DNA of 32,000 nt from Candidatus Methanoperedens sp. (GCA_041494705.1 JBGQBI010000004.1:60001-92000); one strand, 5' to 3'; positions 11,231 to 20,843 are shown, counted from the first letter of the stretch. Notes: a model not told the origin generated them from the letters alone. Program-made: numbers and translations.

Positions 11231-11276
11231 TTAACAAACATTTTTAGATATAAAAGATAATCTGGATATCCATGGT
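11228..11276 (+). repeat. Left copy of an imperfect direct repeat flanking the Fic gene
   Basis: TGATTAACAAACATTTTTAGATATAAAAGATAATCTGGATATCCATGGT aligns with 12412-12458. About 37 of about 48 positions are identical by hand alignment, including the ATGGT at each start codon. Confidence 0.7.
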
Positions 11277-12405
11277 CAGTCCTCCCTGGCACCCCCTCTA
11301 CACCCTCACTCCAGCCATCGCCCGCGCGCTCATGGACATCGAAGCAGCACGCGCCGTGGTCGGGCAGACGCCCCTGCCGCCGGCAGCAGAGGCTGAACTG
11401 CGCCGCCGTGCCCGCATACGTTCCACGCATTATTCAACCCGCATCGAAGGCAACCGCCTCACGCTGGCAGAGGCTGAACAGGTCATCGAGGGGAAACAGG
11501 CGCATTTCCACGGACGGGAAAGAGATGTCAGCGAAGTGAAGAACTACTGGAATGCACTGCTGCGCGTTGAGGAATGGGCTGCGAAAAAAATGCCGCTCAC
11601 AGAAGAGCTTATCCGAAGGCTTCATGCGCTCATAAAAGAGGGGGCGCGTGCTAAACCCACGCCTTACCGTGATGGTCAGAACGTCATCCGCGATTCAGCA
11701 TCAGGTGCAATAATCTATCTGCCGCCCGAAGCCAGAGATGTTCCCGCGCTCATGGCAGCGCTTGTCGAGTGGGTGCAGAAGGCAGAAAAGGAGGGCTTTC
11801 CCGTGCCGCTCATCGCCGGTCTTGTGCATTACCAGTTCGTTACCATTCATCCTTACTATGACGGCAACGGCAGGACGGCGCGCCTGCTTGCGACCTTTAT
11901 CCTGCACCGCGGCGGCTATGGATTAAATGGATTTTTCTCGCTGGAAGAACACCATGCGAGCGACCTGGAAGGCTATTACCGCTCCCTTGCTGTACATCCG
12001 CACCACAACTATTACGAGGGACGTGCAGAAGCTGACCTGACGCCGTGGCTTGAATACTTCGCCAAAACCTTGGCTGAAGCGTTTACCGCTGCAAAAGATG
12101 AGGCGCTGCATTATGCTGAGCGGGGTGTGCCAGTAGAACCCGAAGAACTGCGCCGTCTTGACCACAGGGCTCGGACAGTTCTTGCGCTGTTCGCCAAAGC
12201 AGAACAGGTTACTACATCACAGGTCGCCGCTACTCTGGGACTTTCAGAGCGTATGACCCGTTTGTTGCTCAATACCTGGGTCAAAGATGGCTGGCTGGTC
12301 ATAGCAAATCCATCTAACAGGAAACGTGCATACGGTTTATCGGTAATTTATCGGCAATATATTGATAGTTTTTCGGCAATGCATGAGGATGAACGTGAGA
12401 CGTGA
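11272..12405 (+). CDS. Fic family protein (class II, N-terminal inhibitory helix; C-terminal winged-helix)
   Basis: The Fic active-site loop is HPYYDGNGRTARLL. The N-terminal inhibitory motif STRIEGN fits (S/T)xxxE(G/N). The C-terminal wHTH-like segment is TSQVAATLGLSERMTRLLLNTWVKDGWLV. The DNA is visibly far more GC-rich than its flanks. Confidence 0.88.
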   Translation: MVSPPWHPLYTLTPAIARALMDIEAARAVVGQTPLPPAAEAELRRRARIRSTHYSTRIEGNRLTLAEAEQVIEGKQAHFHGRERDVSEVKNYWNALLRVEEWAAKKMPLTEELIRRLHALIKEGARAKPTPYRDGQNVIRDSASGAIIYLPPEARDVPALMAALVEWVQKAEKEGFPVPLIAGLVHYQFVTIHPYYDGNGRTARLLATFILHRGGYGLNGFFSLEEHHASDLEGYYRSLAVHPHHNYYEGRAEADLTPWLEYFAKTLAEAFTAAKDEALHYAERGVPVEPEELRRLDHRARTVLALFAKAEQVTTSQVAATLGLSERMTRLLLNTWVKDGWLVIANPSNRKRAYGLSVIYRQYIDSFSAMHEDERET

Positions 12406-16796: not shown

Positions 16797-17641
16797 AACA
16801 AATGCGCTCCTGCATTCGTTATCCTGCTTTCATGTACTTCCCCGAATTCCGAAAGCGCGCCATTGTCGTTTATGGCAAAAACCGTATTCCCCAGCATTGC
16901 CTGGCTCGCAAGACCGCCGGCAGCTTCGACAGCCTCGATTGCATCCATAACCCTCGGGCTCATGAGTTCGATTTCTTTTGCGAATGCAGAGGACTGGCGG
17001 AAAAAGTCAGGAAGCGTGGGTTTTTTCAGGAGTTCCTTGAGCCTTAAGCGCCCTGCTTTATTGATGCTCCTTTTTTTCAGGTCATCGGATAGAACCGATT
17101 TTGTGGAAATCCCGCCAAAGCTCACCCAGGAAATCGTTTCATCCCTGCACGGAAGCTTGTCGATAGCTACGGTAAAAGGCGCGCCTGCCTTTTTCCTGAT
17201 GACGATGCCGCCGAATGTCTGCCCCGTGACATCGCCAAGCCCTGTCCTGTTCGTGACTTCTGCGATATGCGCAGCCTCTGCTATTTCCCTGAAGGTCAAA
17301 TTCAGGGAAAGCGCTTCGTTCACCGCAAGCGCGGCGCTCAATGCACCGGCGCCGCTTGCCCCGAACCCCGCGCCGACGGGCACGCGGAGAGTGGTTTCTA
17401 CAAGGACAGGCTGCGAGGTCAGGAGCTTGATGGCTGTTAGCGTTGTTGGGGCGTCTGTAACGGCGCCGTTTATTTTCACGGTTGTTTCTTTTGCGGCGCT
17501 TACTTTTGTTACCGCGCCGTCCTCAAGGCAGATGCCGGCGCCCATCGAGCCTGAAAGTGCGGGGTCTTTCTTTATGTCGATTATGAAAATGCCTGAGATG
17601 TGGGCGGGGGCGAATGCCTGGGAGAGAATTTTTTGATGCAT
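16793..17641 (-). CDS. Pantoate kinase (archaeal PoK, GHMP kinase family)
   Basis: AFAPAHISGIFI...GSMGAGICLEDG...VPVGAGFGASGAGALSAALAVNEAL is a GHMP motif with a COG1829-type layout. It forms an operon with PPS. Confidence 0.8.
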   Translation of the reverse strand: MHQKILSQAFAPAHISGIFIIDIKKDPALSGSMGAGICLEDGAVTKVSAAKETTVKINGAVTDAPTTLTAIKLLTSQPVLVETTLRVPVGAGFGASGAGALSAALAVNEALSLNLTFREIAEAAHIAEVTNRTGLGDVTGQTFGGIVIRKKAGAPFTVAIDKLPCRDETISWVSFGGISTKSVLSDDLKKRSINKAGRLRLKELLKKPTLPDFFRQSSAFAKEIELMSPRVMDAIEAVEAAGGLASQAMLGNTVFAINDNGALSEFGEVHESRITNAGAHLL

Positions 17642-17774
17642 TGGAATGGATTTTATGTACTTGTTAAGCTAAATTGTTTACTGGAACGTTTGGGTCTTTC
17701 GGGAAACTATAAATTAAGTAAAAACCAACTGGAAAGGGGGAATTTTGGGTTGATAATATATCCAAGTATAAGAT

Positions 17775-19007
17775 TTAAAATAAACCTCGAATGATGCCCA
17801 AATCGTCCGTAGAAATTTTTTGTCCTGCTTGATGGTTAAATGAACTTAGGGCTTTGCGTATTTTTTCTAAACGAATCGGATTCTTCAATTTTTTAATTTT
17901 TTCGAATGAATACGCGGTTACAATTGATTTGCCTTCAGTGTAAGTCATATATTCTTTAACAGTAAAAGCGGATTGCCGGCTATATTTTTTCCAAATTTCT
18001 GATGGATGACCCGTCGTTATTTTCATGATTTCCGTGTACCCGCTGATTGCTTGTATGGGAGATGTAACATAAAATAAAAGGACTTGATTTTTTTCAACAC
18101 CCGAGAAAACCCGCCCTCCTTTGATAAAGACTCTATCCTTCTTTTGAACTAAATGTTCGAAATATTCAGGTTTTACTACCACAATTAGACCAGCGGTATC
18201 TTTTGATGAGGTTGGCAGTGTAAGTCCAGTTAGTTCTTCTAATTTGATTCGGTCTATTAATGTTATTCCATTCTTGCCGGAGTAATTAATCGCCGCCTCA
18301 CTAAAATAAGGTGCAAAATATATCAGATTACCTTTAACCAATACTTCTTTCAACGAAACTTTTAAATCATCAATATCGAGTTCATGGTCTAGATCATCAC
18401 AAACCAGCATTGTTGCCATGAACTTCACATCATTAATTTTTTTATCATAATACGAATATTTCTCATCGACTAAAGTATATCCAAATATTCGAGCCATAAC
18501 CCATTGAGAAATTGCTATCCAATCATAGTGTCCAATATATTTTATTGGCAATTTTTTTACTAATAGATAACTTTCCTTGCCCTGTCCATAAAAATCTCCA
18601 CGATTTTGGAATTCGTAATCTTTTTTTATAAAAAATTTTAAAGTCTCTTTCTCGTCAATTGACATATCAACATGAATTTGAGTGCAACCTCTTTCAATGC
18701 AATAATTTTCAATGGAATCTAAGAGCATCGACCCAATCCCACGACTTCTAAAATCCTTTCGTAAAAAAAAGTTTTTAAGTTCGACCGTCTTGCTAGCTGT
18801 TATCCTTATAATTCCGTCACCAACAATATCTTTTGCGCTCGTAAAGAACCCGAAGGCAATTTTATCTCCAGATTCAACCTCTTGAATTGTATTTGAAACC
18901 CATTTTTTATAATTAGGATATTCTAAATCTTGACTTCGTAAAAGAGATTCTAATTTTTCAATCTCATTACTTGAGATAATTCTATCTGGATAACCTTCTT
19001 CCGTCAT
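17775..19007 (-). CDS. Three-module fusion protein: GNAT acetyltransferase + Mrr-like (PD-(D/E)xK-fold?) segment + ASCH/PUA-like domain
   Basis: GNAT motif A is RSRGIGSMLLDSIENYC, with IHVDMS...FFIKKDYEF. The middle segment is FGYTLVDE...YYDKKIND...ATMLVCDD...NLIYFAPYFSEAAINYSGKNGITLIDRIKLEEL. The C-terminal segment is VVVKPEYFEHLVQKKDRVFIKGG...VLLFYVTSPIQAISGYTEI...AYSFEKIKKLKNPI. The DNA is AT-rich. Confidence 0.6.
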   Translation of the reverse strand: MTEEGYPDRIISSNEIEKLESLLRSQDLEYPNYKKWVSNTIQEVESGDKIAFGFFTSAKDIVGDGIIRITASKTVELKNFFLRKDFRSRGIGSMLLDSIENYCIERGCTQIHVDMSIDEKETLKFFIKKDYEFQNRGDFYGQGKESYLLVKKLPIKYIGHYDWIAISQWVMARIFGYTLVDEKYSYYDKKINDVKFMATMLVCDDLDHELDIDDLKVSLKEVLVKGNLIYFAPYFSEAAINYSGKNGITLIDRIKLEELTGLTLPTSSKDTAGLIVVVKPEYFEHLVQKKDRVFIKGGRVFSGVEKNQVLLFYVTSPIQAISGYTEIMKITTGHPSEIWKKYSRQSAFTVKEYMTYTEGKSIVTAYSFEKIKKLKNPIRLEKIRKALSSFNHQAGQKISTDDLGIIRGLF

Positions 19008-19009
19008 AC

Positions 19010-19444
19010 TTAATCTTTTTTGAGCTGAATCTTAAATAAAATTAGTTTCTCATATTTTTTTACATAATCTTGAACAAAATCGATAACTTTTGGATCATTT
19101 TGGACCGAAGGAGGAATTGTTTTGTCATAAATCTCCTTGGGGATTTCATTAAGAGATTTTATAATTAATCGATCTGTAATAATACCCCAGATTGGATTGT
19201 CTTTATAGCCTCGTCTTAGTTCGACCGTTCGACCTTTTTTCACATTTTTTGAATTAAACACCCCATTAAATCCACGCATTTCCCACTCCTTTTCGCCGCT
19301 TAAAAATAATTGATACCATCGTTCATCTAAAGGGATAAATAATCGATTATCGGTTTTGATGCGATCCATCCTTTCAGAAATTTTAAAACCTGGGTATTTA
19401 TCAAGTGTTATTTGTCCGGCCACATTTATACTACAGGAGGGCAT
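19010..19444 (-). CDS. Stand-alone ASCH-like (PUA-fold) domain protein
   Basis: FIPLDERWYQLFLSGEKEWEMRG...VKKGRTVELRRGYKDNPIWGIITDRLIIKSLNEIP fits an ASCH beta-barrel pattern. Its stop lies 2 nt before the start of the fusion gene. Confidence 0.55.
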   Translation of the reverse strand: MPSCSINVAGQITLDKYPGFKISERMDRIKTDNRLFIPLDERWYQLFLSGEKEWEMRGFNGVFNSKNVKKGRTVELRRGYKDNPIWGIITDRLIIKSLNEIPKEIYDKTIPPSVQNDPKVIDFVQDYVKKYEKLILFKIQLKKD

Positions 19445-19610
19445 GATAGTTAAATTTTTCCTAAAATGTATCGATTGGTTCTAAATAATTCGATGAGTCA
19501 ATGAAGGCTAAAATCAGATGACCTTCCAGCATATTATGAGAGCAAAAGCCGAGTTAAACCACCAAAATAAATGGGAGTTTAATAGATTTAAAATAGTTAA
19601 TCGTCACTTC

Positions 19611-20843
19611 TCACGGATTAAACAACCCTATCGTCTTCCCCAGCACATCAATGAACTTCCGTGCCTCTTCCTCTGTATTATACAAATAAAGCGAAGCCCT
19701 CACCGCAGCCTCACACTTTCGGTAATTGAACCACGAATGCACGCAGAATGCCCCCGAGCGCACCTCGATGTTCTCGGTCTCGTCAAGCACGAGCGCTATA
19801 TCATGGGCATCCCCACCCTTTGGAAGCTCAACCGTGAAAGCGATGATGCCGGCGCGGAGTTCGGGCTTCTGCGGGCCTATGATTTTCAGCCCAGGCATGT
19901 CCTTTATCCCATTGGTAATAATCGTATTCAGCCGCTTTTCATGTTCCTCAATATTCGATAGCCCGATATTGTTTAGGTAATCAACGGCTGCGCCAGAGCC
20001 TATCATACCTGCATAGTTCTGCAAGCCCGCCTCGAATTTCTCAGGCGGAGGCAGGAATTTTGCACCATCGTAGGTGGTATCGCTAACCGTATCACCGCCA
20101 ACGATGAAAGGCGCCAACTCTTCGAGCAAGTCATGTTTCCCGTAGAGCACGCCCATACCCGTCGGCCCCGCCATCTTGTGCACCGAAAGCGCGAATAAAT
20201 CAACATCCAGTGCCTTCACATCCACAGGTTTGTGCGGTGCGCTCTGGGCGCCGTCCAGCATTACAAGCGCTCCATGGTCGTGGGCGATTTTGATAATCTC
20301 CTTTGCCGGTATGGTATAGCCGTCAAGGTTCGCGGTATGAACCATGCTCACGAGCCGCACGTTCTTGTTTTTGCTCATTATTTCCTCGAACTGGGGAAGG
20401 TTGAAGGTATTATCGGGATTTGAGTAAACAATCATGTGCTTAATCCCGCGCTTGTGAGCCTGTATCTGCCAGGGTATGAGGTTTGAATTGTGTTCCCTGT
20501 CAGTGGTGAGAACTATATCGCCTTTTTTGAGTTCAAGCGAATTCGCAACGAGATTTAACCCCTCGGTGGTATTCCGCGTGAAGATAATTTCCTCGGGACA
20601 TGATGCGCCCAGGAATTTCTGGAATTTCTTCCGTGCCTCTGTCACTTTCTCGTCCACCTTCTTTGCCATCTTGTGAATCGAACGACCGCCGCATACGGGA
20701 TATTCATTATAATATTCGTTCATTGCATCCATGACCTGCTTTGGTTTCAATGTCATGCAGGCATTGTCGAAATAGATGGGGTACTTGCCGTTCCATCTTT
20801 TCCAGAGCGATGGGAAGTCAAGGCGGATTTTTTGGATGTCCAT
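19611..20843 (-). CDS. Cysteine desulfurase (class V aminotransferase, SufS/CsdA-like)
   Basis: IYFDNACMTLKPKQV...HNSNLIPW...FALSVHKMAGPTGMGVLYG contains the PLP lysine. ...RSGAFCVHS contains the catalytic Cys loop. Confidence 0.88.
   Translation of the reverse strand: MDIQKIRLDFPSLWKRWNGKYPIYFDNACMTLKPKQVMDAMNEYYNEYPVCGGRSIHKMAKKVDEKVTEARKKFQKFLGASCPEEIIFTRNTTEGLNLVANSLELKKGDIVLTTDREHNSNLIPWQIQAHKRGIKHMIVYSNPDNTFNLPQFEEIMSKNKNVRLVSMVHTANLDGYTIPAKEIIKIAHDHGALVMLDGAQSAPHKPVDVKALDVDLFALSVHKMAGPTGMGVLYGKHDLLEELAPFIVGGDTVSDTTYDGAKFLPPPEKFEAGLQNYAGMIGSGAAVDYLNNIGLSNIEEHEKRLNTIITNGIKDMPGLKIIGPQKPELRAGIIAFTVELPKGGDAHDIALVLDETENIEVRSGAFCVHSWFNYRKCEAAVRASLYLYNTEEEARKFIDVLGKTIGLFNP

Follow-up and report, generated by a model that had tools for sequence, protein, structure and literature searches.

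An accessory two-gene cassette of Candidatus Methanoperedens pairing a GNAT–nuclease-fold–ASCH protein with a free ASCH protein, and its candidate role in genetic conflict

The question raised by this locus is what a short, AT-rich pair of genes does between the housekeeping genes of Candidatus Methanoperedens sp. The window, which here means the whole stretch of 32,000 nucleotides analysed (GCA_041494705.1, JBGQBI010000004.1:60001-92000), carries on its minus strand a small gene for a free-standing ASCH protein, followed by a larger gene in which a GNAT acetyltransferase domain, a domain of nuclease fold and a second ASCH domain are joined in one chain (Table 1). The pair is read here as a mobile two-gene accessory cassette of the kind "GNAT fused to PUA-like reader + free ASCH", most likely a conflict module for virus defence or of toxin-antidote type; to this reading, taken whole, we give about an even chance. 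Its parts differ in strength, the domain assignments being the firmest and the chemistry the most tentative. Loci with L-numbers are the metagenomic or viral loci compared; P0083, P0084, P0086 and P0087 are distant relatives of the large protein.

The assignment of domains to both proteins we regard as practically beyond doubt, beginning with the GNAT domain of the large protein. Pfam Acetyltransf_1 was matched at 32.5 bits (cut-off 20.7), Acetyltransf_7 and Acetyltransf_10 likewise above their cut-offs, and Pfam GNAT matches were present in all 33 members of the large-protein family. The acetyl-CoA motif R87-x-x-G90-x-G92 is intact; in the family alignment R87 and G92 are invariant, G90 nearly so. 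In Foldseek, the AlphaFold2 (AF2) model of the large protein (predicted local distance difference test, pLDDT, 89.6; predicted template-modelling score, pTM, 0.78) gave GNAT matches at E ~1e-9; the nearest structures, from PDB sequence and Foldseek matches together, are Ard1, RimI, Naa50/60, PaiA and SpeG-like enzymes.

The C-terminal domain is an ASCH domain close to ZmASCH, which was matched by the single sequence in phmmer (E 4.6e-7), by the family profile (E 1.2e-10) and in Foldseek (template-modelling score, TM, 0.82-0.87; root-mean-square deviation 2.0-2.2). It also matches the PADLOC profile PDC-M11B (E 1.3e-14); residues ~302-392 match the C-terminal end of the PDC-M11A profiles (E 3e-8 to 3e-3), and the region matches the C-terminal domain of NCBIfam NF008917. 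In an alignment that includes ZmASCH and the intact ASCH of P0083, the octapeptide of this domain reads K-K-D-R-V-F-I-K: the catalytic lysine is replaced by D291, invariant in the family, and the catalytic glutamate by F294, either F or Y in the family, with the same replacements in the distant relatives. The catalytic residues of GxKxxExR are absent from this domain, and because the Lys/Glu dyad is lost it is probably a non-catalytic reader.

The segment between GNAT and ASCH is assigned, by sequence and fold membership, to the Mrr-type PD-(D/E)xK fold. Pfam Mrr_cat was matched in 27 of the 33 family members (best E 1.6e-5, 25.4 bits against a cut-off of 21), the window's own large protein being below the reporting threshold. 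The order of secondary-structure elements in the AF2 model, alpha-beta-beta-beta-alpha-beta-alpha-beta-alpha, fits the Mrr-type fold. The middle-domain profile gave no meaningful match against PDB sequences; GNAT and ASCH matches dominate the best 50 of the whole-model Foldseek search, and the middle domain is not assessable from them. Only 8 representatives among 1.84 billion were recovered with the middle-domain profile, 4 of which are P0083, P0084, P0086 and P0087. These four retain YDWE…(L/F)D…EVK, i.e. the intact E…D…ExK signature; at the same columns the window subfamily has I/V, K/N/D and LVC/FIN/LIE/LII. In the window protein the helix glutamate is I164 and the ExK site L201-V202-C203, the D position not being conserved in the family. 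Because the E…D…ExK columns are substituted in the window's lineage and kept in the distant relatives, the nuclease is judged from the alignment to be inactivated there, with every catalytic residue lost.

The small protein is recognisable as an ASCH protein by structure only. No match was found in Pfam, NCBIfam, PADLOC (E up to 1) or PHROGs, nor, by phmmer or profile, to any solved ASCH among PDB sequences. Its AF2 model (pLDDT 83 overall, core >87) has ASCH-type structures as the best 22 Foldseek matches against the PDB, among them PH0355, the N4-acetylcytidine (ac4C) amidohydrolase YqfB, ZmASCH and TTHA0113 (E 2e-5 to 6e-4 for PH0355, YqfB and ZmASCH), and it matches many viral ASCH proteins in BFVD; the predicted fold is thus that of ASCH. 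The octapeptide GEKEWEMR corresponds to G50-E-K52-E-W-E55-M-R57, in which G50, K52, E55 and R57 are invariant across 30 sequences; E75 is invariant too in the family alignment. According to a recent preprint, ac4C was removed from tRNA by each of the 19 ASCH proteins assayed, and the lysine and the Glu/Thr of the octapeptide were essential (bioRxiv 10.64898/2026.02.27.708502). The residues retained by the small ASCH are, in sequence, consistent with ac4C amidohydrolase activity. A recent duplication as the origin of the two ASCH modules was considered and rejected, no similarity between them being found by hhalign; as there is no profile similarity between them, the small and the fused ASCH are assigned to different subfamilies.

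A family-specific N-terminal extension of about 30 aa precedes the ASCH core of the small protein; it is conserved, poorly ordered in the AF2 model and missing from the viral homologs described below. It could be a segment that docks onto the large protein. Residues 1-30 correspond to window positions 19355-19444, with Q11 and F20 nearly invariant.

The first-pass annotation, made from the DNA of the window alone, had already proposed most of this architecture, and the present searches bear it out: the three-module reading of the 410-aa protein, with acetyl-CoA motif A of the GNAT (RSRGIG in the window protein), an Mrr-like restriction endonuclease (REase) fold of doubtful active site and an ASCH barrel at the C-terminus, and the ASCH/PUA-like pattern of the 144-aa ORF (open reading frame), whose GxKxxExR residues are invariant. 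One detail had to be corrected. Degeneracy of the nuclease motif holds; the "CDD" then taken for the ExK site lies 2 residues off the true position.

Both ORFs were recovered by the ORF call on the window as first described, co-directional and on the minus strand. The stop codon of the small gene (19010-19012) and the ATG of the large gene (19007-19005) lie 2 nt apart, and the two genes are translationally coupled. The window sequence is identical to part of a 2.07-Mb metagenome contig of the Joint Genome Institute (JGI), in whose annotation the small product has 137 aa; since most homologs also have 137 aa and begin at the equivalent of V8, the true start of the small gene is probably the GTG at 19423, for a product of that length.

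The pairing is as constant as its occurrence is sparse. Among 5.8 billion proteins the two families form 39 and 41 clusters, with contigs common to both and all from archaeal metagenomes; the large protein occurs in 5 of 185,579 species genomes (Methanosarcinales, Methanotrichaceae and unclassified Halobacteriota/Methanobacteriota metagenome-assembled genomes). On every contig long enough, the 137-aa gene lies directly upstream of the ~411-aa gene, 2 nt apart or with a 4-nt overlap. The GC content of the pair is 0.34-0.40, against 0.42-0.54 in the flanks, at almost all loci, and the surrounding genes differ in every genome. In L010 (3965-7357) the genes just upstream of the pair make up a complete Lamassu system (LmuA, LmuC, LmuB; LmuB E 2e-97); in L014 (5968-9683) its downstream neighbours are genes for a REase_II-like HATPase_c_3 protein, Vsr and a Dcm-type methylase. 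The neighbourhood survey that had been called for thus finds the pair conserved and in accessory contexts, some of them defence contexts. In L015 a 105-aa prokaryotic YEATS (pYEATS) gene (723-1040), to which no PADLOC model was matched, was noted about 1.2 kb upstream of the pair. YEATS domains form a family of acyl-lysine readers.

In the window itself the pair forms an island of 1.9 kb. GC is 0.32-0.38 over 17.5-19.5 kb and 0.46-0.55 in the flanks; for the pair alone it is 0.335, against 0.486 and 0.495. By precomputed Pfam labels the upstream neighbour is a class V aminotransferase/cysteine desulfurase and the downstream neighbours are a GHMP-kinase (pantoate kinase, PoK) and PPS. This PoK shares 94% identity with proteins assigned to "Candidatus Methanoperedens sp.". 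In blastn comparisons of the junctions, homology to related Methanoperedens loci stops near 17683 and restarts near 19600. The pair is absent from all 23 metagenomic loci with PoK relatives (72-91% identity). L017 has an empty site, with only 33 bp from the desulfurase stop to the PoK start; in L028 it is filled by non-homologous end-joining genes (Ku, a LigD-type ligase and polymerase) and a DUF72-like gene; in L037 and L033 the gap is ~0.8 kb with a small membrane protein; and in L049, the closest relative (PoK 94% identical), it holds four ORFans, one weakly PDC-M19A-like. Because the same site is empty or differently filled among relatives, the desulfurase-PoK-PPS junction (17642-17774 and 19445-19610 in the window) is a hypervariable integration hotspot in Candidatus Methanoperedens, and the pair is accessory. 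Deviant composition and absence at the syntenic site in relatives, which together define a genomic island, were both found, and the accessory and mobile nature of the pair is held with high confidence. An Rfam search of the island gave no non-coding RNA match at E up to 0.1. A further insert in L049 separates PoK from PPS and carries a DUF4365/Aga-REase-like gene and a gene for a 1020-aa S-layer/PQQ protein.

The AT-richness that had been estimated by eye is thus borne out by computed GC (0.335 against ~0.49), and the proposed horizontal acquisition between housekeeping genes by the comparison of sites. A 12-bp direct repeat that had been said to bracket the pair exactly fared less well: the two copies are exact and lie where reported (Table 1), yet they do not form an exact bracket and are not general in the family. 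In Markov-1 simulations P was ~0.008 for a 12-mer common to both junction stretches and ~0.064 for any far-spaced 12-mer within 17500-19800. The right copy abuts the homology boundary, the left copy lies ~88 bp inside it, and in the 13 other pair-bearing loci only 7-11-bp matches, at chance level, were seen. The repeat was accordingly not accepted as a target-site duplication or insertion scar, being of marginal significance, off the left boundary and missing from those 13 loci. On the minus (coding) strand the repeat takes the form TATTTTAAATCT, similar to an archaeal TATA box, and the copies stand 130-160 nt 5' of the next starts, those of the small ASCH gene and PoK; instead of being scars of insertion, both may be promoter elements. 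Elsewhere in the window (11272..12405, plus strand), 5.4 kb from the cassette and with host-like GC, there is a gene whose Fic-domain product (377 aa) corresponds over nearly its whole length to SoFic, a single-gene defence model of PADLOC (E 3.4e-52).

Table 1 Features of the cassette and its insertion site, in window coordinates (aa, amino acids; AF2, AlphaFold2; GC, guanine plus cytosine content)
Feature	Position	Strand	Size or placement	Basis
Large gene	17775..19007	(-)	410 aa	
GNAT domain	18543..19007	(-)	residues 1-155 of the 410-aa protein	Pfam, Foldseek, alignment
Mrr-type PD-(D/E)xK fold, catalytically degenerate by alignment	18204..18542	(-)	residues 156-268	Mrr_cat matches, AF2 topology, alignment
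C-terminal ASCH, ZmASCH/PDC-M11B-like	17778..18203	(-)	residues 269-410	phmmer, family profile, Foldseek, PADLOC
Small ASCH gene	19010..19444	(-)	ORF of 144 aa	
Small ASCH protein	19010..19444	(-)		AF2 pLDDT 83; Foldseek against PDB; invariant octapeptide
AT-rich accessory insert, maximal extent	17684..19599	(.)		blastn of junctions against relatives, GC profile, empty site in L017
Left 12-bp repeat copy AGATTTAAAATA	17771-17782	(+)	overlaps the large-gene stop; 130 nt 5' of the PoK start (minus strand)	
Right 12-bp repeat copy AGATTTAAAATA	19584-19595	(+)	140-160 nt upstream of the small-gene start (minus strand); 15 nt downstream of the desulfurase stop	

The small ASCH has its nearest relatives outside the cassette in nucleotide-metabolism modules of viruses. 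At 36-46% identity they occur on eight IMG/VR contigs and in L039 and L040, within a conserved block of a thymidylate-synthase-like gene, the small-ASCH homolog and a family B DNA polymerase (PolB), with an HNH endonuclease and a dCMP deaminase in some; in L039/L040 the polymerase is split by an intein. The block spans 5098-10058 in L039/L040, 369-5399 in L052 and about 7000-14500 in L053-L056. This context suggests a tie of the small-ASCH subfamily to pyrimidine or modified-base metabolism and to virus-host exchange. The whole cassette as a virus-borne unit was rejected, the large protein having no relative in IMG/VR.

A kind of system to which the cassette can be related has been described. 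Bell, Wolf and Koonin (2020; PMC7641849) reported (PIN)-GNAT-EVE fusions in operons nearly always with a separate ASCH and often with an AAA+ ATPase, located in prophages or close to type I restriction-modification (R-M) and other defence genes; a toxin-antitoxin (TA) or base-acetylating function was proposed for them, and all are uncharacterised. Such fusions beside a free ASCH go back to Iyer et al. 2013, as cited in PMC7641849. The connecting sequence is P0083 (566 aa), which has an N-terminal PDC-M11B-type ASCH (E 2e-61, octapeptide intact), a GNAT, an REase domain with E…D…EVK and a degenerate PUA-like domain, and which in sequence amounts to a Rosetta-stone fusion tying a catalytically intact ASCH to a GNAT-REase-PUA protein. 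At its locus (L047 3-2535; also L048) a partial PDC-M11A gene (E 4e-86) lies upstream and overlaps the P0083 start. Because this gene shows GNAT motifs followed by an EVE-like domain, the PADLOC candidate PDC-M11 (A, GNAT-EVE type; B, ASCH) appears to be the (PIN)-GNAT-EVE + ASCH system; in the literature the name "PDC-M11" was met only in passing, in one unrelated preprint. The P0083 locus holds three PUA-like domains and two GNATs in total. In L044 a gene for a 389-aa IstB/DnaA-like AAA+ ATPase (64-1233) ends 4 nt before the start of P0084, whose nuclease motif is intact; this ATPase recalls those of the (PIN)-GNAT-EVE operons (PMC7641849).

How such a cassette might work can be proposed from its retained and lost residues; the substrate, the writer/eraser relationship, toxicity and any antiviral effect are what we infer. 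The nuclease-dead Mrr fold and the non-catalytic ASCH reader would hold the large protein on nucleic acid, and the intact GNAT, with acetyl-CoA as donor, would acetylate a target close by. An exocyclic base amine, e.g. cytosine N4 in RNA or DNA, would be the most attractive acceptor; alternatives are aminoacyl-tRNA or a protein bound to nucleic acid. The small ASCH, with its Lys/Glu dyad kept, would remove the mark or limit it on self, as antidote or eraser, and the viral small-ASCH homologs could serve as counter-defence. A conflict role for the cassette is somewhat favoured, since the genes are tightly coupled and mobile and have defence neighbours. The specific reading as writer and eraser of base acetylation is judged less likely than not. 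For an eraser speak K52 and E55, invariant in the small ASCH and both lost in the fused one, and P0083, which likewise combines one intact and one degenerate ASCH. Its fullest form, by analogy a DarTG-like system acetylating nucleic acid, in which the GNAT would write ac4C or another N-acetyl base, the dead nuclease and the reader would position it, the small ASCH would erase and viral ASCH proteins would act as counter-defence, we think unlikely; if true, it would be the first base-acetylation defence system and a natural writer/reader/eraser set for ac4C-type marks.

Several observations weigh against this account. The closest structural kin of the GNAT are protein N-terminal and polyamine acetyltransferases, and among its nearest structural relatives there is no nucleic-acid acetyltransferase and no GNAT toxin. 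Immediately upstream of P0084 and P0087 no small ASCH is seen, and neither window protein fully matches any PADLOC model. A recognised defence system adjoins the pair in only 2 of the 6 distinct relative neighbourhoods examined; most loci, including the window, have housekeeping neighbours and are not defence islands. At the insert there is no mobility gene, no tRNA and no convincing target-site duplication, and its 1.9 kb contain no integrase. No member of the GNAT-PUA + ASCH kind has been studied experimentally, and the generalisation of ASCH proteins as deacetylases comes from one preprint, concerns ac4C in tRNA and has no bearing on the product of this GNAT.

Among the other explanations, two keep the cassette within genetic conflict and assign its parts differently. 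In a classical GNAT toxin-antitoxin system, charged tRNA would be acetylated as by TacT, AtaT and KacT, the fused ASCH and the dead REase fold would bind the tRNA, and the small ASCH would neutralise the toxin by binding, with no antiviral role. The small gene lies upstream of the GNAT gene and is coupled to it, the cassette is mobile and AT-rich, ASCH proteins bind tRNA (bioRxiv 10.64898/2026.02.27.708502), the conserved, disordered N-terminal extension that the viral homologs do not have could be a docking peptide, and Bell et al. (PMC7641849) count the related (PIN)-GNAT-EVE operons among putative TA systems. The partner of the large protein is, however, an ASCH protein, where known GNAT toxins (type II systems TacAT, AtaRT, KacAT) are paired with ribbon-helix-helix (RHH)/DUF1778 antitoxins; no GNAT toxin structure was found among the PDB sequence matches or the best 50 Foldseek matches; and the invariant octapeptide and E75 of the small ASCH point to an enzyme, not a plug. 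We consider this explanation improbable. Somewhat less so, and still unlikely, is a modification-sensing defence without self-toxicity, in which the ASCH modules and the dead REase fold would recognise modified cytosine-type bases or nucleotides made by infecting viruses and the GNAT would block replication by acetylating the hypermodified viral base or a viral protein. It would agree with fusions of PUA-like readers to REase folds being marks of modification-dependent restriction (PMC6765204; PMC7641849), with the intact E…D…EVK of the ancestral relatives, and with the thymidylate-synthase-like and dCMP deaminase genes beside the viral small-ASCH homologs, which point to pyrimidine chemistry. 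It is weakened by the nuclease being dead throughout the window subfamily, so that no obvious effector but the GNAT is left, and by the purely predicted specificity of its recognition step; it also leaves the constant co-encoding of a catalytically intact ASCH unexplained.

A housekeeping or regulatory module, that is, a writer and eraser tuning ac4C on tRNA or rRNA or a DNA-bound protein acetyltransferase with its regulator, is what the JGI label of the cassette protein ("predicted transcriptional regulator/GNAT") would suggest; the window's neighbours are housekeeping genes, the GNAT resembles protein N-acetyltransferases and ASCH proteins erase ac4C of tRNA (bioRxiv 10.64898/2026.02.27.708502). 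Such a role sits poorly with a pair so extremely patchy (39 clusters in 5.8 billion proteins; 5 in 185,579 species genomes), absent at the syntenic site of the closest Methanoperedens relative, L049, foreign in composition in nearly every host and variable in location, with defence neighbours, and of all explanations it is held to be the least probable.

With a conflict module as the preferred reading, the cassette belongs to a class, the GNAT-PUA + ASCH operons, that has been recognised computationally as a conflict class and stands in PADLOC as a candidate only. The retained and lost catalytic residues make the logic of this class readable and turn a vague idea about modified bases into a testable hypothesis of a writer and a dedicated eraser; the cassette also gives a natural genetic context to the claims that ASCH proteins are general ac4C erasers, and lengthens the so far short list of accessory and defence genes known from Candidatus Methanoperedens.

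Compared with known systems, the large protein resembles modification-dependent (type IV) restriction enzymes, in which a PUA-like reader is combined with a PD-(D/E)xK or HNH nuclease (for example the SRA-, EVE- or ASCH-nuclease fusions of PMC6765204), in having an Mrr-like fold and a PUA-superfamily domain in one chain; unlike them, its subfamily is substituted at every catalytic position and has a GNAT and an obligate ASCH partner in addition. The small protein resembles the ASCH ac4C erasers (YqfB, TthASCH, ZmASCH, EOLA1 and the ASCH of TRIP4) in its fold and in a GKER octapeptide with the Lys/Glu dyad, and differs in having no detectable sequence similarity to solved ASCH proteins, an extra N-terminal extension and an operon with a GNAT gene. 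With DarT-DarG the likeness is a functional analogy only: a presumed nucleic-acid-directed transferase and a hydrolase of a mark-removing family in a two-gene mobile operon. DarTG pairs ADP-ribosylation with a macrodomain; here presumed acetylation is paired with ASCH, and neither the folds nor the chemistry are related. The closest likeness is to PDC-M11, with which the cassette has in common a chain joining a GNAT to a C-terminal PUA-like domain, and a separately encoded ASCH; both are accessory and uncharacterised, often with R-M or other defence genes nearby. No full-length PDC-M11A match was found and the small partner is not PDC-M11B. A dead Mrr-type REase fold sits between the GNAT and the PUA-like domain of the window protein; the fused PUA-like domain is a ZmASCH-type ASCH, not EVE, and there is no PIN domain; the free partner belongs to another ASCH subfamily, and the GNAT and REase parts have no PDC-M11A profile match. 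The claim of the first-pass annotation that no comparable named system is known therefore does not stand, (PIN)-GNAT-EVE + ASCH/PDC-M11 being the precedent. The window cassette is clearly a variant of the (PIN)-GNAT-EVE + ASCH kind of system; the kind is already known, and what is new here is the exact architecture, with its REase-fold insert and this partner ASCH.

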